64,000 nucleotides of DNA from an uncultured Clostridia bacterium. Its GTDB lineage: Bacteria > Bacillota > Clostridia > Lachnospirales > CAG-274. The number at the start of each line of letters is the position of its first letter. The stretch's first letter is position 1. The position numbers and the translations under genes were made by a program. Below are positions 10,423-42,593 of this stretch, in pieces. Under the pieces are notes generated by a model. The model was given only the letters and a program-made list of their open reading frames with translations, was not told where the DNA came from and searched no databases. The stretch lies in assembly GCA_947585865.1 (NCBI GenBank), contig CANPXH010000008.1, positions 11,884 through 75,883 on the forward strand, in the 5' to 3' direction.

Positions 10423-10674
10423 CGGTTATATTCCTCCTTGATCATTTTTTTGGAAAAGATCAAACTAACCCATCCTTTCCATTATAAATACAATAATACA
10501 CCTTTTATTTTTTTAAAACAATGTGCAAATAAAACAAATAATCAATGGGTATTTTGTATAAAAATACTTCAATTACATTAAATTTCTGTTACATTAAAAT
10601 TACTGCATAAACATTGAAAAAACAAAAAAAATAATGTATAATTATTTTATATTGAAAATCAAGGAGGGTAAATT

Positions 10675-13020
10675 ATGAAATTAAGACGGTTAATTGCGGC
10701 GATATCAGTCGTAACAATGCTTTTCGGCTCAGTCAGCGCACAGGCATACGGTACTCCCGTCACAAGGGGAGAGGCTGCGGATATGCTTGCTTCTGCGGCA
10801 GACGACTATACTCCCGGCATAAGTGCTGCGGATATACTTAAGGGCTATGATGACGGCGAGCTCCACGAGGATAGGGGCCTTACTCGTGCAGAGGCTCTTG
10901 TAATGCTTAAGAGAGCCTTCGGCGAATTCCCCGCTCCCACAGGACACAATCTGAGAACAGGCTATCCTGCCGAAAACTTTACGGATATTCCCGACTGGGC
11001 GGATGAGGAGATAGCCGATGTGCTTGCTTCGGGCATAATAGCAGGCACCTCCGAGAACACACTTTCTCCCGATGAGCCCATTACAAGGGAACAGCTTGAA
11101 GCACTTATAAAGCGTACATATGCTTATATGGGCAAAAGCTTAAAGGACGACTACTGGGCAACCGTCAATAAAAATGACCTTGATACTCTTGAAATAGATG
11201 AAGGCAAAACATATGTAGGCGGCGCATTCAATGAAACTATAAATACCGTAGAGGAACAGATGACAGCTATAAGAGACGAGCTTCTTGCAGGAAATTATGA
11301 AAAGGGTTCAAAGGAGCAGAAAATTGCCGACCTCTACAGAAGCGTAATGAATAAGGAATACAGGGCAAAAACGGGAATGGCGCCTATAATGCCTTACATG
11401 GAGCTTATAGACAAGGCGCAGAGCGTTGAGGATATTATCAAAATAAACAACACTCTTACAGAAGAAATTGCATTGACGCCCCTTATGACCTTCGGCGTAT
11501 ATGTAGACGATAAGGACAATTCAAAGAATATAATGCGCTTTAGTGTACTTTCAGGATTTCTTGGCGTAAGCTCTTTGTATGACGACGAAAATATAATTGA
11601 TGAATACAGAAAGCTTATAAATACATATTTAAAGGCTGTAGGCGAGACCGATGAGGAGGCTGACAGGAACGCCGACCTTGTAATAGACTATGAATCAAGG
11701 ATAATGAAGTATTTCCCCGATATTCAGGAATTTAATGATGTTGACAAGACGTACAATCTGTATAAATTAGATGATATAAAGGAAATGTTCCCGGGAGTTG
11801 ATATAGATTCCGTATTTGCAGCCTCAGGCTATGACGAAAGCTGGAAAACCACCGATATGCTTCTTGTCTGCCCGGATTTTACAAAAGCTGTAGCAGCAGA
11901 GCTTACCGATGACAATATAGATACCCTTAAGGCATACATTAAATTTGTAGTTTTATTCCATACAGGGGGTAATCTTTCAGATGAGCTTTCAGACGCCGAA
12001 TATACCTTTTATGAGGAAACGGGCATGGGCGCAAGAGAAACCGAAGAGCAAAATGCTCTTTCTACTATAGAGGGTACATTTTATGACTACCTGGGCGAAA
12101 TATATGCCAATAAATATTTCTCAGCCGAAAAGAAGCAGAATGTGGAAAATATGGTAAAGGATATAATAAACGTATATAAGAACCGTATTGAAAACGCAGA
12201 CTGGATGAGCGGCAAGACAAAGGAAAAGGCTTTGCTTAAGCTCAGCGAAATGAAGATACTTATAGGCTATCCCGAGGTATACAACGACCCTTATGAATAT
12301 GCCGAAATAAACAGCGACAGCCTTTATGAAAATAGTATAAGTCTGTCATTGTCAGTCCGTAAAAAAGACATTGAGGAGCAGTTCATACCTATTGATGAAA
12401 ACTATATGGGTGATTTGGCGGTTTATGATGTAAACGCTTGTTATAATCCTTCAATGAACGAAATAATATTCCCTGCCGCAATACTTCAGGCGCCGTTCTA
12501 TGACTACGACGCATCCTATGAGACCAATCTGGGCGGCGCAGGTTATGTTATAGCCCATGAGATATCTCATGCCTTTGACAATTCCGGAGCGAAATTTGAC
12601 GAAAAGGGAAATTATTCAAACTGGTGGACAGACGAGGACAGGGCAGCCTTTGACGCTCTCTGCGATAAGATGGCGGAATACTATGACGGTCGGGAAATAG
12701 CTCCCGGCATACTGTCAGACGGCGAGCAGACCTTAAGCGAAAATATTGCCGATAACGGCGCTGTAAGCTGCATACTGGAAATAGCATCTCATCTTGAGAA
12801 CCCCGACTACGACGCTCTTTTCAGAGCTGCCGCATACTGCTATGCAGAAAGCAGCGACCGCAGCACTTTGGAATTTGACACGGTAAGCGATGTTCACAGC
12901 AACGGAAAGCTCCGTATAAACAGAGTATTTGAAAACAATCAGATATTCTACGATACCTATGACATAAAGGAAGGCGACGGTATGTACGTTGCTCCCGAGG
13001 ACCGTGTACAGATATGGTAA
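10675..13020 (+). CDS. Secreted M13-family zinc metallopeptidase (PepO/neprilysin-like) with N-terminal SLH-type anchoring repeats, copy 1
   Basis: Signal peptide present. SLH-like segments (LTRAEALVMLKRAF; FTDIPDWADEEIADVLASGIIAG...ITREQL). HEISHAFD zinc motif and ENIADNGA motif. Confidence 0.85.
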   Translation: MKLRRLIAAISVVTMLFGSVSAQAYGTPVTRGEAADMLASAADDYTPGISAADILKGYDDGELHEDRGLTRAEALVMLKRAFGEFPAPTGHNLRTGYPAENFTDIPDWADEEIADVLASGIIAGTSENTLSPDEPITREQLEALIKRTYAYMGKSLKDDYWATVNKNDLDTLEIDEGKTYVGGAFNETINTVEEQMTAIRDELLAGNYEKGSKEQKIADLYRSVMNKEYRAKTGMAPIMPYMELIDKAQSVEDIIKINNTLTEEIALTPLMTFGVYVDDKDNSKNIMRFSVLSGFLGVSSLYDDENIIDEYRKLINTYLKAVGETDEEADRNADLVIDYESRIMKYFPDIQEFNDVDKTYNLYKLDDIKEMFPGVDIDSVFAASGYDESWKTTDMLLVCPDFTKAVAAELTDDNIDTLKAYIKFVVLFHTGGNLSDELSDAEYTFYEETGMGARETEEQNALSTIEGTFYDYLGEIYANKYFSAEKKQNVENMVKDIINVYKNRIENADWMSGKTKEKALLKLSEMKILIGYPEVYNDPYEYAEINSDSLYENSISLSLSVRKKDIEEQFIPIDENYMGDLAVYDVNACYNPSMNEIIFPAAILQAPFYDYDASYETNLGGAGYVIAHEISHAFDNSGAKFDEKGNYSNWWTDEDRAAFDALCDKMAEYYDGREIAPGILSDGEQTLSENIADNGAVSCILEIASHLENPDYDALFRAAAYCYAESSDRSTLEFDTVSDVHSNGKLRINRVFENNQIFYDTYDIKEGDGMYVAPEDRVQIW

Positions 13021-13054
13021 TGTATATTTAATTCAATATTAAGGAGGATAAATT

Positions 13055-15400
13055 ATGAAACTAAGACAAATTATTGCGGCGGTATCCGTCACAACAATGC
13101 TTTTCGGCTCTGTAAGCGCACAGGCGGCAGGCACTCCCGTCACAAGGGGCGAGGCCGCAGATATGCTTGCTGCCGCAGCCGATGACTACACTCCCGGCGT
13201 AAGCAAGGAGGACATACTCAAGGGATATGAAGACGGCGAGCTTCATGAAGAACAAGGAGTTACCCGTGCCGAGGCACTTGTAATGCTTAAGAGAGCCTTC
13301 GGAGAATTTCCCGCTCCCACGGGAGACAATCTGAGAACAGGCTATCCTGCAGAAAACTTTACGGATATTCCCGAATGGGCGGATGAAGAGATAGCCGATG
13401 TGCTTGCTTCGGGCATAATAGCAGGCACCTCCGAGAATACTCTTTCTCCCGATGACCCCATTACGAAGGAACAGCTTGAAACACTTATAACACGTACATA
13501 TGCTTATATGGGCAAAAATTTAAAGGATGACTACTGGGCGACCGTTAATAAGAACACCCTTGATACCCTTGAAATAAAAGAGGGCAGAACAACTGCCGGC
13601 GGCGCATTTGACACCATTAATGATACCGTAGAGGGTCAGATAAAGGCTATAAGAGATGAGCTTCTTGCAGGAAGCTACGAAAAGGGATCAAAGGAGCAGA
13701 AAATTGCCGATTTCTACAGAAGCGTAGTCAACAAGGAATACAGGGCTAAAACGGGGATGGCGCCTATAATGCCTTATATGGAGCTTATAGACAAGGCGCA
13801 GAGCGTTAAGGATATCATTGATATAAACAACACCTTTATAGAAGAAATGGGAATAATGCCCCTTATGTACTACGGTACAGATATAGACGTTAAGGACAAT
13901 TCAAAAAAGGTATTTTCTTTCGATGTAAGTATAGGACAGCTTGGAGCAAAAGCTCTGTATGATGATCAAAACACAATGGATGCATACAAAAAGCTTATAA
14001 ATACCTACTTCAAGGCTATAGGCGAGAGCGATGAGGAGGCTGCAAAGGACACCGAGCTTGCAGCAGGCTTTGAGTCAAGGACAATGAAGTCTTTCCCCGA
14101 TGTTCAGGATATGACTGACATTGACAAGCTTTTTAATCCTTATAGACCGGATGATATAAAGGAAATGTTCCCGGGAGTCGATCTGGATTCCGTATATACG
14201 GCTTCGGGCTATGATGAAAGCTGGAAAACCACCGATATAATTATTTACTACCCTGATTATATAAAAGCTATAGCAGCCGAGTATACCGATGACAATATAG
14301 ATACCCTTAAGGCATATACTAAGTTTGTAATTCTCAGCAAATTAGGAAGCACCCTTTCAGACGAGCTTTTAGATGCCGAATATACATTTATGGAAACAGT
14401 TGGCATGGGCGCAAGAAAGAACGAAGAACAGAATGCTCTTTCCTCTGTAGAAGGTATATTTAATGATTACCTGAGCGAAATATATGCCGACAAATATTTC
14501 TCTGCCGAAAAAAAGCAAAATGTTGAAAATATGGTAAATGATATAATAGACGTTTACAAGACGCGTATTGAAAACGTGGACTGGATGAGCGATAAGACAA
14601 AGGAAAAGGCTTTGCTTAAGCTCGATAATATGAATATACTTATAGGCTATCCCGAGGTATACAAGGACCCCTATGCATATGCTGAAATAAACAGCGACAG
14701 TTATTATGAAAATTATGTGAGCCTGTCATTGTCAAAGCATAAAAAGGATATTGAGGATCAGTTCACGCCTATGGACAAAAACGATATAAGCAAAATGCCT
14801 GTTTATATGATAAACGCAGGTTATCAGCGTACCATGAACGAAATAATATTCCCTGCCGCAATACTTCAGGCGCCCTTCTATGACTATGACGCATCCTACG
14901 AGGCTAATCTGGGCGGCATAGGCTATGTTATAGCTCATGAAATATCACACGCCTTTGATAATTCCGGAGCAGACTTTGACGAAAAGGGAAATATGTCAAA
15001 CTGGTGGACAGACGAAGACAGAGCAGCCTTTGACGCTCTATGTGATAAGATGGCGGCATACTATGACGGTCTGGAAATAGCTCCCGGCATATTGTCAAAC
15101 GGCAGACAGACCTTAGGCGAAAATATTGCAGACAACGGCGCTGTAAGCTGTATACTGGAAATAGCATCTCATCTTGAAAATCCCGATTATGACGCTCTTT
15201 TCAAATCTGCAGCCCACTGCTGGGCAGAAAGCAACAGCCGCAGCTATCTGGCATACATTACCGCAAGCGATACTCACAGCTGCTCAAAGCTCCGTGTAAA
15301 CAAAGTATTTCAGAATAATCAGATATTCTACGATACCTACGGCATAAAGGAAGGCGACGGTATGTACGTTGCTCCCGAGGACAGAGTGCATATATGGTAA
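13055..15400 (+). CDS. Secreted M13-family zinc metallopeptidase with SLH-type repeats, copy 2 (tandem paralog)
   Basis: Same length (781 aa) and same motifs as copy 1. Own AGGAGG RBS. Only 34 nt separate it from copy 1. Confidence 0.85.
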   Translation: MKLRQIIAAVSVTTMLFGSVSAQAAGTPVTRGEAADMLAAAADDYTPGVSKEDILKGYEDGELHEEQGVTRAEALVMLKRAFGEFPAPTGDNLRTGYPAENFTDIPEWADEEIADVLASGIIAGTSENTLSPDDPITKEQLETLITRTYAYMGKNLKDDYWATVNKNTLDTLEIKEGRTTAGGAFDTINDTVEGQIKAIRDELLAGSYEKGSKEQKIADFYRSVVNKEYRAKTGMAPIMPYMELIDKAQSVKDIIDINNTFIEEMGIMPLMYYGTDIDVKDNSKKVFSFDVSIGQLGAKALYDDQNTMDAYKKLINTYFKAIGESDEEAAKDTELAAGFESRTMKSFPDVQDMTDIDKLFNPYRPDDIKEMFPGVDLDSVYTASGYDESWKTTDIIIYYPDYIKAIAAEYTDDNIDTLKAYTKFVILSKLGSTLSDELLDAEYTFMETVGMGARKNEEQNALSSVEGIFNDYLSEIYADKYFSAEKKQNVENMVNDIIDVYKTRIENVDWMSDKTKEKALLKLDNMNILIGYPEVYKDPYAYAEINSDSYYENYVSLSLSKHKKDIEDQFTPMDKNDISKMPVYMINAGYQRTMNEIIFPAAILQAPFYDYDASYEANLGGIGYVIAHEISHAFDNSGADFDEKGNMSNWWTDEDRAAFDALCDKMAAYYDGLEIAPGILSNGRQTLGENIADNGAVSCILEIASHLENPDYDALFKSAAHCWAESNSRSYLAYITASDTHSCSKLRVNKVFQNNQIFYDTYGIKEGDGMYVAPEDRVHIW

Positions 15401-15551: not shown

Positions 15552-16349
15552 TTAAGGCTGTTTTGTTCTGAGTATCACAACTTTGCCGGAATAGTCTACA
15601 TCTCTGTCTCCGAGCACGTCTGCGAGCTCTCTTATCCCAACGTAATTGTTGCCTCTTATATTGATAGCTTTTACCCTGCTTATATTTCCATCGGCATCGA
15701 TATCTATATATTCTGTTTTGTTGTCAAGTATCGGCAGCTTTGTGCTGCTGTTGTATCCTACGGTAAAGCCGGCGTTTTCAAGACCTCTCAGATCTATGAA
15801 ATTTTTGCTGTTTTTTACTATCTTGTCTATTTTTACGGTTTTGCCGTTTATATTTATATAGCCTGTTTCGACCACTTCGTCTTCCTCCTTTTTCTCTATA
15901 TAAACATCCTTCCAGGTTTTTTTGAAATTGTCCGGGGTTTTATAAAGCTTTTTAAGATAGGCGGGCGTGCTTCCCCAATATTTCAACTGGAAGTGGGGCA
16001 TATCCACAGGCGTTGTCCAGTCGCCTCCCCATTCAAGCCCCAGCTCTTTACCTGTTTGGCCTACTTTGTTGAACCAGCCGTCACTGTTGTTATAGGCTCC
16101 CTTTCCGTCATTTCTTATTATATCGAAGGCTACGCCCCATTGGTGCATGGAACTGTAGTCCGTACCCTTGGCATATGTAACTATATTGCCTTTTTCTGTT
16201 CTGCCCAAAGCATAGAGCTTATTCTGCTCGGCAACTGTTCTGCAGCATTCTCCGAGCTTTATGAAAAGCCCTTTTTTGCGGCAGTTTTCAATAAGCCTTG
16301 CCGCCAGTATCTGCAGTTCGGGATGACATTTTGAAATATCTCTTCCCAT
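15552..16349 (-). CDS. M15-family peptidoglycan peptidase (CwlK/VanY-like, endolysin-like) with a C-terminal putative wall-binding domain
   Basis: Starts at MGRDISKCHP with a GGGGAGGTG RBS. RTVAEQNKLY, GVAFDI and GLEWGGDW...DMPHFQ motifs of M15C peptidases. The track ORF start at 16430 is over-extended. Confidence 0.8.
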   Translation of the reverse strand: MGRDISKCHPELQILAARLIENCRKKGLFIKLGECCRTVAEQNKLYALGRTEKGNIVTYAKGTDYSSMHQWGVAFDIIRNDGKGAYNNSDGWFNKVGQTGKELGLEWGGDWTTPVDMPHFQLKYWGSTPAYLKKLYKTPDNFKKTWKDVYIEKKEEDEVVETGYININGKTVKIDKIVKNSKNFIDLRGLENAGFTVGYNSSTKLPILDNKTEYIDIDADGNISRVKAINIRGNNYVGIRELADVLGDRDVDYSGKVVILRTKQP

Positions 16350-16429
16350 AAAGATCACCTCCCCTGTACAATATGACAGAAGAGGCTTATCTGTTACAAC
16401 CACAAAATGTATCATAAAAAATAAACTCA

Positions 16430-16459
16430 TTTTCCCTTGACCGGGTCACGGGAAAATGC
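16430..16459. repeat. Left hairpin direct repeat of mini-island A
   Basis: TTTTCCCTTGACCGGGTCACGGGAAAATGC is itself a hairpin. It matches 17282-17310 at 26 positions, with 3 mismatches and 1 indel. Confidence 0.65.
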
Positions 16460-16472
16460 ATGATTTTAAGTA

Positions 16473-16502
16473 TTGACAATTATTACTTATATGTGGTACC
16501 AT
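16473..16502 (+). promoter_or_regulatory. Candidate sigma-A promoter of island A (TTGACA, extended -10 TGgTACCAT)
   Basis: TTGACA at 16473-16478 with an 18-nt spacer. A TG lies 1 nt before TACCAT at 16497-16502. Confidence 0.4.
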
Positions 16503-16704
16503 TGTATTGTCTAAATTGTTTAATGGAGATAATATATCTATATTAAATATGTCACGTTTGCTGTAAGTAAAATTTTTGTTGTTAGGCAATTATGATTTTG
16601 TCTGTTTTATAGGTGAGTTTTATATACACATTAAATAAAACAACAACAAATATTGAAAATACGATTGGTTTAAAGTAATCAGATATTATAAATTCCGAAT
16701 ACTT

Positions 16705-16815
16705 TAACCGACGGGTAAGTCTCCCGCTTCTATAAGCGGCGAGTACTTACTTTTGTATTCCGCAGGGGTACAAGCTCCTGCTGAATACAAAGGCTTTGGT
16801 AAAAGCCGTCGGTTA
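16705..16815 (+). ncRNA. Unclassified structured RNA element (three-way-junction fold) in the long leader of the small membrane-protein gene
   Basis: A 10-bp closing helix TAACCGACGG/CCGTCGGTTA encloses two long hairpins (16715-16750 and 16752-16791). The element is GC-rich inside an AT-rich leader. Confidence 0.45.
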
Positions 16816-16871
16816 TGAGTACGTAGCGTAAGCGTAGTACGAATATCCTTGACTATTTAGGAGGGAATAAA

Positions 16872-17138
16872 ATGCCGGTAAATATACGTACATACAAAAA
16901 TTCAATTCTTGCATCGGTCATTGCACTGCTTGCGTCAATCATCGACGCTCTGTTAAAGCTTTTGGGATTAGCGTGCATTGTCGGGCTTTGCTCTGAGAAA
17001 GGTTTTATCGTCGGCTTGCTTTTAGGCTTTATCTGTCTTGTAATATGTATTCTGATAGGCACATTTATCAAGTGGATAATATTTAAGCTGTGCGATCGGA
17101 TCGCCATGCGCAAACTTATCAAGCAAAACAAAGAGTAA
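16872..17138 (+). CDS. Small hydrophobic membrane protein (88 aa, 2-3 TM segments, basic C-terminal tail)
   Basis: Strong AGGAGGG RBS 6 nt upstream of the ATG. Hydrophobic core with a charged tail (DRIAMRKLIKQNKE). Followed by a terminator. Confidence 0.6.
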   Translation: MPVNIRTYKNSILASVIALLASIIDALLKLLGLACIVGLCSEKGFIVGLLLGFICLVICILIGTFIKWIIFKLCDRIAMRKLIKQNKE

Positions 17139-17167
17139 GGAAAGTGTAAAATAAATCAAAAAAATTT

Positions 17168-17196
17168 GGCTCTTTGTCAATAGTTGGGAGTAACAC
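17168..17196 (+). repeat. 29-nt element shared with island B (inverted copy at 52655-52682)
   Basis: GGCTCTTTGTCAATAGTTGGGAGTAACAC equals the reverse complement of 52655-52682 except for a one-base indel. Confidence 0.7.
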
Positions 17197-17213
17197 CAAA
17201 TTTAGAGCGATCG

Positions 17214-17250
17214 ACCACCTGTTATTCAGTATAGCAGGTGGTTTTATTTT
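17214..17250 (+). terminator. Intrinsic terminator of the island A transcript
   Basis: Stem ACCACCTG/CAGGTGGT followed by TTTTATTTT. Confidence 0.7.
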
Positions 17251-17280
17251 GTTGCTGCTGTCTTCCGTAAAGCCGTTAGG

Positions 17281-17310
17281 ATTTTCCGGTGACCGGGTAA
17301 CGGAAAATGC
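17281..17310. repeat. Right hairpin direct repeat of mini-island A, abutting the TetR stop codon
   Basis: ATTTTCCGGTGACCGGGTAACGGAAAATGC is a hairpin that matches 16430-16459. Confidence 0.65.
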
Positions 17311-17883
17311 TCAGAAGCTTATGCCCAGAAGTTTAAGCGGTTTTTTTGAAAAAAACTCCAGTATAAGGTCTATGGCGCTGTCAGGGTCCGCATTATCGTT
17401 TTCTACCCACCATTTCAACATAATAATAAAGAGCGTGCGGTATACTTCAAGCAGCAGCTTTTCGTCCATCATACTGTTTGCCATGCCGTGTGTCTGCGAA
17501 AGTATGACCGGAGTTATCTTGTCATAGAGCTTATGTACAAATACCTTATTGTTTTCATCGTTTATAAGCACAGAAAAGACCTCCTTTTCTTTTCTTATAT
17601 TATTGAGAAGATTTATAACGGGCTTTCTCTGTTCATGTCCATTTAATTTATGAAGGGTCTCCATAGTGGACTCGGGATCAAGCACATCTATAAGCTCATT
17701 GCATATCTCGTCATAGAGAGCCTGCTTGGTCTCGTAGTGCATATAAAATGTTTTTCTGTTTATAAGGGCTCTGTCGGCTATGTCCGTAATAGTGACGTTG
17801 TTGTAGCCTTTTTCTTTTATAAGTTGAAGAAAAGCATCTTTTATAGCTTTCCTGCTTTTGACTATTCTCAGATCCGTTTTCAT
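17311..17883 (-). CDS. TetR/AcrR-family transcriptional regulator
   Basis: N-terminal TetR HTH (IKDAFLQLIKEKGYNNVTITDIADRALINRKTFYMHY). Divergent from the efflux operon. Confidence 0.9.
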   Translation of the reverse strand: MKTDLRIVKSRKAIKDAFLQLIKEKGYNNVTITDIADRALINRKTFYMHYETKQALYDEICNELIDVLDPESTMETLHKLNGHEQRKPVINLLNNIRKEKEVFSVLINDENNKVFVHKLYDKITPVILSQTHGMANSMMDEKLLLEVYRTLFIIMLKWWVENDNADPDSAIDLILEFFSKKPLKLLGISF

Positions 17884-17974
17884 AAAATCACTCCTTTGCC
17901 ATATCTATAAAATATAACAAAATCAAAAAAAATGCAATACCCTATACAGATAATCAACATTTTGTGTAAAAACG

Positions 17975-42512: not shown

Positions 42513-42593
42513 TGCCGCTGACGGGAGTCGAACCCGTATGGTATTACCGCACGATTTTGAGTCGTGTGCGTCTGCCAATTCCGCCACAGCGGC
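42513..42593 (-). tRNA. tRNA-Leu (anticodon CAA)
   Basis: Cloverleaf read by eye. Acceptor GCCGCTG/CAGCGGC+A, anticodon stem CACGA/TCGTG with loop CTCAAAA, long variable arm, and a GGTTCGACTCC T-loop. No encoded CCA. Confidence 0.85.

Follow-up and report, generated by a model that had tools for sequence, protein, structure and literature searches.

A tightly folded, GC-rich element lies just upstream of a small membrane-protein gene in a 64,000-nt stretch of DNA from an uncultured Clostridia bacterium (the window), and it raises the question of whether such an element serves that gene or belongs to something larger. The original prediction, made from the sequence alone, placed it at 16705-16841 and described a three-way-junction RNA in the leader of the gene, with a riboswitch-like sensor, a processing or stability element and a type I toxin-mRNA fold as candidate functions. 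The analysis presented below gives a different answer. The stretch 16703-16853 is almost certainly one copy of a dispersed, multicopy, modular family of structured repeats found in gut Lachnospiraceae and related Clostridia. Its effect on the neighboring gene is probably incidental.

The structure itself is well supported. RNAfold gave an MFE of -73.3 kcal/mol for 16695-16875, compared with -46.2 +/- 3.8 kcal/mol for 200 dinucleotide shuffles (z -7.17), none of which (0/200) equalled the native value; the opposite strand of the element folds more weakly, at -61.2 kcal/mol. The G+C content is 47% in the element versus 23-27% in the surrounding intergenic region, bearing out the observation of GC-rich complementarity within AT-rich sequence. 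All of the helices that had been listed are present, namely P1, pairing TAACCGACGG (16705-16714) with CCGTCGGTTA (16806-16815), hairpins 1 and 2, and a GUAA-looped hairpin, as is the AGGAGG at 16859-16864. However, the MFE fold is a four-way rather than a three-way junction, composed of P1 and three hairpins, hairpin 3 having been overlooked. The closing helix thus exists as described, but with hairpin 3 formed it has 8 bp instead of 10.

All parts of the copy are read on the forward strand. The 5' strand of P1, TAACCGAC (16705-16712, extendable to 16714), is placed by the MFE structure and by family covariation, and pairs with the 3' strand GTCGGTTA at 16808-16815, also placed by the MFE fold, the final A of which doubles as the A of ATGAG. 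Hairpin 1 (16714-16751) has a GTAAGTC...GACTTAC-type stem with a CUAU loop and two bulges, and Blautia-type copies carry a counterpart with a homologous AAGTCC/GGACTT stem. Hairpin 2 (16752-16791) has a UACAAG loop and a C.U mismatch at 16761/16782; both of these hairpins are supported by the MFE structure and by the covariance model R1 introduced below. The CTCCT proposed as a competitor for the SD turns out to be the 3' strand of hairpin 2, where it is always paired with its own partner. Hairpin 3 (16792-16807; GGCTTT-GGTA-AAAGCC) comes from the MFE structure.

Outside the junction and directly stacked on P1 in the MFE fold is the 30-nt G.A hairpin at 16815-16844 (ATGAG-TAC-GTA-GC-GUAA-GC-GTA-GTA-CGAAT), which matches the pattern ATGAGNANGNAGC N4-6 GCGNANTNCGAAT. 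This is the GUAA hairpin of the original prediction, correctly seen but longer than drawn (ATGAGTACGTAGC-GUAA-GCGTAGTACGAAT), and the apparent "mismatches" inside it correspond to a GUA/GUA internal loop and a tandem G.A pair. The unit closes with a 3' tail, ATCCTTGAC (16845-16853), delimited by the flank logo and by loose contig ends at 16854. Across the family the tail follows ATCC(GN)TTGAC or GTCCGCTTTAC, and conservation stops after ...TT[G/T]AC. The first tail bases (UAUCC or UGUCCGC) mimic the P1 5' strand (UAACC or UGAACGC). Pairing of these bases with the P1 3' strand would lengthen the G.A hairpin, and one such pair covaries, being C-G in type A copies and U-A in type B copies. This mimicry may reflect a conformational switch or be a relic of tandem copying.

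The source organism of the window belongs to the rabbit gut, and the boundaries of the unit were located with contigs from four rabbit-gut metagenome runs placed on 15800-17900. Depth was ~3x in the flanks and 20-118x, summed, across 16703-16854, and loose contig ends with mutually different flanks fell exactly at 16703, before the unit, and at 16854, behind it. In these metagenome data, no read or contig was observed to join the flanks while skipping 16703-16853. Together with the R1 match, the depth and the loose ends define a whole repeat unit of 151 nt at 16703-16853, of type B and of a rabbit-gut subfamily; the extent first proposed captured most of it, but the true unit starts at 16703 and reaches 16853. 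In the closest relatives of the window copy (L069, L064, L066, L076, L138, L146 and L149), similarity ends at TTGAC(TAT), before the SD. L170, a sibling assembly from the same strain, matches the island exactly apart from two changes, the first of which, 16761 C>A, repairs the C.U mismatch of hairpin 2 to an A-U pair and raises the R1 score from 75.5 to 79.4 bits. High-depth metagenome contigs also carry A-U at 16761/16782. The second change, a 2-nt deletion (GC at ~17092-17096), lies in the downstream ORF and shortens its product to 73 aa.

In agreement with the earlier failure to place the element in a known class, no Rfam 15 family matched it at gathering threshold. A permissive search returned one notable match, Clostridiales-1 (RF01699), at 23.9 bits (E 0.0078; gathering threshold 48), and this weak match is driven by the G.A hairpin. 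The weakness is reciprocal, R1 scoring 23-30 bits on true Clostridiales-1, the members of which reach 105-117 bits. Canonical copies of the window family gave no Rfam match at gathering threshold (0/18 loci) and none at E<=1 (0/7 loci). Also considered and rejected were a tRNA-like cloverleaf, group II intron domain 5, a k-turn, and the hairpin and twister-sister ribozymes, all of which misfit in loop and bulge geometry and had no Rfam match.

The relationship to Clostridiales-1 merits closer description. Both families occur in gut Clostridia and their phages, both have a P1-closed multi-hairpin junction, and an internal G.A hairpin is shared between them, its arms (AUGAGCAAGUAGC...GCGGAUUGCGAAU) being nearly identical and its common core reading UGAG...GNA-GC / GC-GNA...CGAA. 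In Clostridiales-1, P1 encloses a long hairpin, then the G.A hairpin as the middle arm with a longer distal stem, and then a third hairpin; in the window family, by contrast, three other hairpins lie within P1, and the G.A hairpin is outside the junction, 3' of P1, stacked on P1 and closed by a tetraloop. The remaining arms are unrelated. Membership was therefore rejected, the score being below 48 bits and the architecture different despite the common G.A hairpin, and the window family is related to Clostridiales-1 only through this module. Rfam files Clostridiales-1 as an sRNA gene, and a 2010 paper rated it as probably an RNA, neither cis-regulatory nor a switch (Weinberg et al. 2010, PMC2864571).

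A search of IMG/VR contigs with the window-derived pattern ATGAGNANGNAGC N4-14 GCGNANTNCGAAT matched 12 viral contigs, of which nine hold true Clostridiales-1 and the others are L004, L005 and L008. Both L004 and L008 have exactly the architecture of the window copy with other helix sequences, the P1 strands being TAACCAAAT/ATTTGGTTA and TAATAAAAA/TTTTTATTA. In L005 the element is cut off by the start of the contig, and two tandem copies of the hairpin unit are seen; over L005:1-215, units of ~100 nt each consist of a G.A hairpin (GGATATGAGCAAGTAGC...CGAATATACGG) and then another hairpin, which gives the module a third arrangement. A relaxed hairpin pattern brought in 42 false, mostly coding, GC-rich matches along with the two true ones, and the stricter pattern was kept. 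BLASTN of the island against phages and plasmids returned nothing relevant. As a separate observation, the near-identical phage contigs L001-L003, L006, L007, L009, L011 and L012 carry true Clostridiales-1 (105-111 bits) ~25 nt upstream of a gene beginning MAKIQNPTKVITGVNT, which we take to resemble a DUF2815-type phage ssDNA-binding protein.

The extent of the family became apparent from a scan of one genome per prokaryotic species, with the loop restricted to 4-6 nt. Among the matches listed there were at least 115 loci in ~45 assemblies, with up to 10 loci in a single assembly, and the hosts were nearly all Lachnospiraceae or other Clostridia from human, rabbit, horse, deer and rumen guts. 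Named hosts include Blautia schinkii, B. wexlerae, Eubacterium ramulus, Roseburia faecis, Dorea hominis, Robinsoniella peoriensis and Anaerocolumna. Two types of copy can be distinguished: type A begins 5' TGAACGCAG... and ends in the tail GUCCGCUUUAC, and type B, to which the window copy belongs, begins UUUAACC... and ends in AUCC(GN)UUGAC. Single members fold individually into P1, hairpins and the G.A hairpin, in a modular unit where P1 surrounds three, two or one hairpin, three being the number in the window copy. The G.A hairpin, which is common to Clostridiales-1 and is the most conserved module of the family, combines Watson-Crick pairs, a tandem G.A pair and a GNA/GNA loop under a cap that is usually a GNRA tetraloop, and is followed by a tail of ~10 nt ending in TT(G/T)AC. 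With multiple copies in a genome, intergenic sites that are unrelated to one another and sharp ends common to the copies, the family shows the marks of a dispersed structured intergenic repeat of the generic BOX/REP-like kind. No description of such repeats turned up in a literature search.

Head-less, internally deleted and tandem partial copies are common. Head-to-tail partial duplications, in which the tail abuts the hairpins of the next unit, were observed at L101:4493-4650, L109:4852-5001 and L150:7089-7200, one of them with a 65-nt period. A short variant, AATGAACGCAGGCAGCGAAGCAACTGCGTTC-ATGAG..., occurs in L075, L078, L079, L108 and L110 with an identical ~100-nt flank in Roseburia faecis, Blautia spp. 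and other MAGs, which suggests that it rides on a horizontally shared element.

From 32 copies and a hand-set structure we built the covariance model R1, which found 127 matches in 100 sources and a further 29 in 24 additional sources. Within the 64-kb window it detects a single copy, at 16703-16858, with 75.5 bits over model positions 1-169. RNAalifold on a MAFFT alignment was weak, types A and B being out of register, and was replaced by the hand-set structure and a model-fitted alignment. In that alignment, 92.3% of pair cells are standard, as opposed to 76.1% when shuffled and 33-41% when slid, and double changes occur at 49 of the 52 pairs with every helix represented, figures that are upper bounds because they were counted on a structure-fitted alignment of related copies, paralogues included. 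The same bound applies to P1, with double changes at 8/8 pairs and variants such as TAACCAAAT/ATTTGGTTA, TGAACGCA/TGCGTTCA, TAATAAAAA/TTTTTATTA and others, to hairpin 3, with double changes at 5/5 pairs, and to the G.A hairpin, the helix pairs of which are 98-100% kept. The folds predicted independently for single sequences and the diversity of the P1 sequences point in the same direction as these counts. What had been suspected from one sequence, a functional structure, can now be described as a selected nucleic-acid fold with many homologues across Clostridia and abundant compensatory changes in the proposed helices.

If the element were a gene-specific leader, its copies would be expected to keep company with a particular gene, and they do not. 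Context statistics relied on crude ORF calls, taking the longest ORFs of at least 110 aa. The 148 proteins flanking 105 copies fell into 224 Pfam families, no family appearing more than four times. This array of unrelated neighbors rules out a riboswitch or gene-specific leader as the nature of the family, and no transposase or recombinase stood out among the 148 proteins. A riboswitch expression platform was rejected as well, as conservation ends at TT(G/T)AC and both the downstream sequence and the SD vary; an alternative 3' hairpin of type A copies is missing from the window copy and shows no covariation. The type I toxin-antitoxin locus was likewise discarded, since the ORF has no homologue and over 100 loci have the element but no such ORF.

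At the window locus, the 88-aa membrane ORF (16872-17138, forward strand) lies outside the repeat, and its SD, AGGAGG at 16859-16864, begins 6 nt past the unit. It is an orphan: a protein search found only itself among 5.8 billion proteins. Either the ORF is a decaying gene or the frameshift in L170 is a low-coverage assembly error. A promoter-like site, TG-extended and with 10/12 consensus matches in a scan (TTGACA-18-TACCAT, 16473-16502, forward strand), could transcribe the element in the sense direction, and a hairpin resembling an intrinsic terminator follows the ORF at 17213-17243 on the same strand.

Several other features of the window were recorded along the way. Two similar hairpins, 16430-16459 (TTTTCCC-TTGACCGGGTCAC-GGGAAAA) and 17281-17310 (TTTTCCG-GTGACCGGGTAAC-CGGAAAA), which differ by a compensatory stem change, bracket the promoter, repeat, ORF and terminator, and may constitute another repeat family; in run X2, contig depth is raised over 16368-16509 (18-24x versus ~3x). 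Around the terminator hairpin, 17149-17290 has a depth of 9-22x versus ~3x, with loose ends at 17166, 17190, 17242, 17253 and 17277, and seems itself to be repeated sequence. At Rfam gathering level, the window contains a DUF3800-I RNA at 51683-51791 on the forward strand (97 bits), flanked by two copies of a 45-nt terminator-like direct repeat (51602-51646 and 52613-52657), and, on the reverse strand, a T-box leader at 55908-56124 (101 bits), a skipping-rope RNA at 56262-56358 (40 bits) and a tRNA at 42513-42593. Two tandem genes for 781-aa SLH-bearing M13 peptidases occupy 10643-15400, 2380 nt apart, with a 300-nt stretch that is 81% identical.

How the copies are placed and oriented bears more directly on function. 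Confident copies between co-directional ORFs are in the sense direction in 56 cases and antisense in 10 (85% sense; p 7e-9). An upstream ORF in the same orientation is present for 78 copies; 25 of these copies begin between -30 and +20 nt from its stop codon, and in 13 of those 25 the upstream ORF runs into the start of the unit, the 5' TTTAA or TTGAA of which supplies the TAA or TGA; many copies end 10-60 nt ahead of the next start codon. The fold is also asymmetric with respect to strand. Among distinct long copies, the top strand is the more stable in 62/66 (-64.4 versus -56.5 kcal/mol, p 4e-11), G.U cells outnumber A.C cells by 140 to 78, and the conserved G.A pairs become C.T mismatches on the opposite strand. 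The sense bias, the top-strand asymmetry, the G.A pairs with a mostly GNRA loop, and the placement in 3' UTRs and intercistronic spacers together suggest action at the level of RNA. No RNA run holding the stretch of the window was found; RNA-labelled runs contain the type A unit within longer contigs with various flanks, these contigs being undirected and possibly including DNA.

The explanation we favor overall, with reasonable though not strong confidence, is an uncatalogued dispersed structured repeat that is co-transcribed with its neighbors and is probably a structural element of their mRNAs. It would be transcribed passively within the neighboring messages and, at the window locus, would form part of a ~370-nt leader that extends from the promoter-like site (16473) as far as the orphan ORF. 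Its RNA would fold into a compact, nuclease-resistant module acting as a barrier in mRNA stability or processing, with the G.A hairpin a likely docking site for a protein or RNA. The repeat would be neither a ligand sensor nor a gene-specific regulator. The specific role in RNA stability or processing is the more tentative part of this picture, and we rate its chances at slightly under even; it is also the one candidate from the original list compatible with the favored explanation, the riboswitch-like sensor and the type I toxin-mRNA fold having found no support.

Other readings must be weighed against this one. That the element is a dedicated cis-regulatory leader of the 88-aa gene, whether as a riboswitch-like sensor or as the 5' fold of a type I toxin mRNA, has an evident appeal at this locus, where the unit is in sense orientation and a strong SD follows it after 6 nt, where promoter-like site and terminator make a plausible monocistronic unit, and where the ORF product has the look of a small hydrophobic toxin or holin. 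It is nevertheless highly improbable. The element adjoins hundreds of unrelated genes, a census that largely refutes the reading; the ORF has no homologue and is frameshifted in L170; similarity to the closest copies stops before the SD; no conserved unpaired junction core is evident, and computational analysis found no antisense partner. Membership in the leader of a small membrane-protein gene, as first proposed, thus does not survive the comparison. Only slightly better placed, and still improbable, is the idea of independently transcribed, trans-acting small RNA genes with several paralogues per genome. A conserved fold of ~150-170 nt in many copies would fit such genes, as would the filing of the nearest catalogued relative, Clostridiales-1, as an sRNA gene; yet conservation is abruptly bounded by the structure, which has neither a conserved promoter ahead of it nor a terminator at its end, a third of the copies abut or overlap an upstream stop codon, many end 10-30 nt before the next start inside operons, and modular deletions and tandem partial copies are frequent.

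The main rival, which we consider unlikely but well ahead of these two, is a mobile element acting at the level of ssDNA, IS200/IS605 palindrome-associated or REP/RAYT-like, in which the hairpins, above all the G.A hairpin, would be recognized by a Y1-type transposase at replication forks and the RNA fold would be a by-product. Flank logos revealed no flank conservation, terminal inverted repeats or target duplication, and the ends are sharp, as such an element would have them. On the same observations a classical MITE was rejected, the ends TTTAACC.../...TTGAC not being inverted copies and no target being duplicated. Also in line with ssDNA mobility are a strand-specific structure with conserved mismatches and a subterminal hairpin ~10-11 nt from the 3' end; a 5' boundary TT(T/G)AA that often coincides with a stop codon and could reflect a short target word; an 85% sense orientation close to that expected from a lagging-strand preference, most Firmicutes genes being on the leading strand; and copies in phage contigs. 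The tip GCGAAAGC is also well known as an exceptionally stable mini-hairpin in DNA, so that the fold could be important in its ssDNA form. What tells against it is that no transposase occurs among the 148 neighbors and no ends are split by a gene-sized insert, that the left and right hairpins are dissimilar whereas IS200/IS605 ends resemble each other, that covariation preserves a whole four-way junction of ~50 bp, far beyond the need of such enzymes, and that orthologous copies are fixed within species, the sole polymorphism being an imprecise deletion. A further reading, which we regard as a long shot, makes the G.A hairpin the functional core of a self-propagating superfamily of structured elements that includes Clostridiales-1. 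The hairpin would recruit a novel enzyme or be catalytic in its own right, for example in cleavage or ligation of tandem transcripts of more than one unit, or in a new ssDNA- or RNA-mediated copying route, and this reading, if true, would make the family a new kind of bacterial mobile RNA/DNA element and not passive mRNA furniture.

The behavior of individual loci informs the question of mobility. In E. ramulus a unit is fixed within an operon, with 14 nt between it and the end of sua5 upstream and 10 nt between it and a low-molecular-weight phosphatase gene downstream. This spacing is the same in 10/10 places listed (1,123 blocks are indexed for the phosphatase that served as query); over those 10 places the unit shows one substitution, C to U, which keeps a G-U pair. 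At a B. wexlerae-type locus, an otherwise identical contig has a 92-nt deletion that removes the 5' flank, the head and hairpin 1, and this is imprecise decay, not an excision or an empty site. Look-ups for empty sites via the TetR and L116 proteins found nothing, and no copies with their ends separated by a gene-sized insert were found. A search for autonomous copies, with a head 0.5-6 kb upstream of head-less G.A hairpins, yielded nothing consistent; no Y1 (RAYT/TnpA) transposase was found among the neighbors of the copies or between separated ends; and, as regards a retro-element signature, 5'-truncated copies were not clearly more numerous than 3'-truncated ones. The present-day copies look fixed and appear to be decaying by deletion.

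These results remove a false riboswitch and toxin-leader lead and define, by coordinates, consensus and covariance model, a large structured repeat family absent from Rfam 15. Its copies lie within UTRs and operons of Lachnospiraceae that are abundant in human and animal guts, among them Blautia, Eubacterium ramulus and Roseburia. The orphan Clostridiales-1 motif is tied to this family by one very conserved 30-nt G.A hairpin, which offers a handle for finding an interacting protein or an activity. Should the element modulate the decay or processing of mRNA, many housekeeping operons of gut Lachnospiraceae would be affected; if the repeat is mobile, the mechanism would lie outside the textbook ones.

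Comparison with known dispersed elements helps to place the family. Like the window family, IS200/IS605-derived elements lack terminal inverted repeats and target duplications and carry strand-specific subterminal hairpins with conserved mismatches; unlike them, the window family has dissimilar ends and no transposase partner was found for it, and the IS200/IS605 mechanism does not account for a conserved four-way junction. The BOX elements of Streptococcus pneumoniae, together with SPRITE and RUP, are multicopy, intergenic, co-transcribed repeats of ~100-200 nt with stable folds and a variable number of modules. Their sequence and taxon are unrelated to those of the window family, and BOX is built of boxA-B-C modules whereas the window family is built of a junction and a conserved G.A hairpin. 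The REP/BIME and REPIN sequences of Proteobacteria are orientation-biased, dispersed structured repeats of 3' UTRs and intercistronic spacers, which shield upstream mRNA from 3' exonucleases and, near a stop codon, affect translation. REPs, however, are single imperfect palindromes of 20-40 nt mobilized by RAYT transposases, whereas the fold of the window copy is far more elaborate and no RAYT-like gene occurs among the neighbors of the copies. On the explanation favored above, the repeat would influence the decay or processing of mRNA in the manner of REP and BOX elements.
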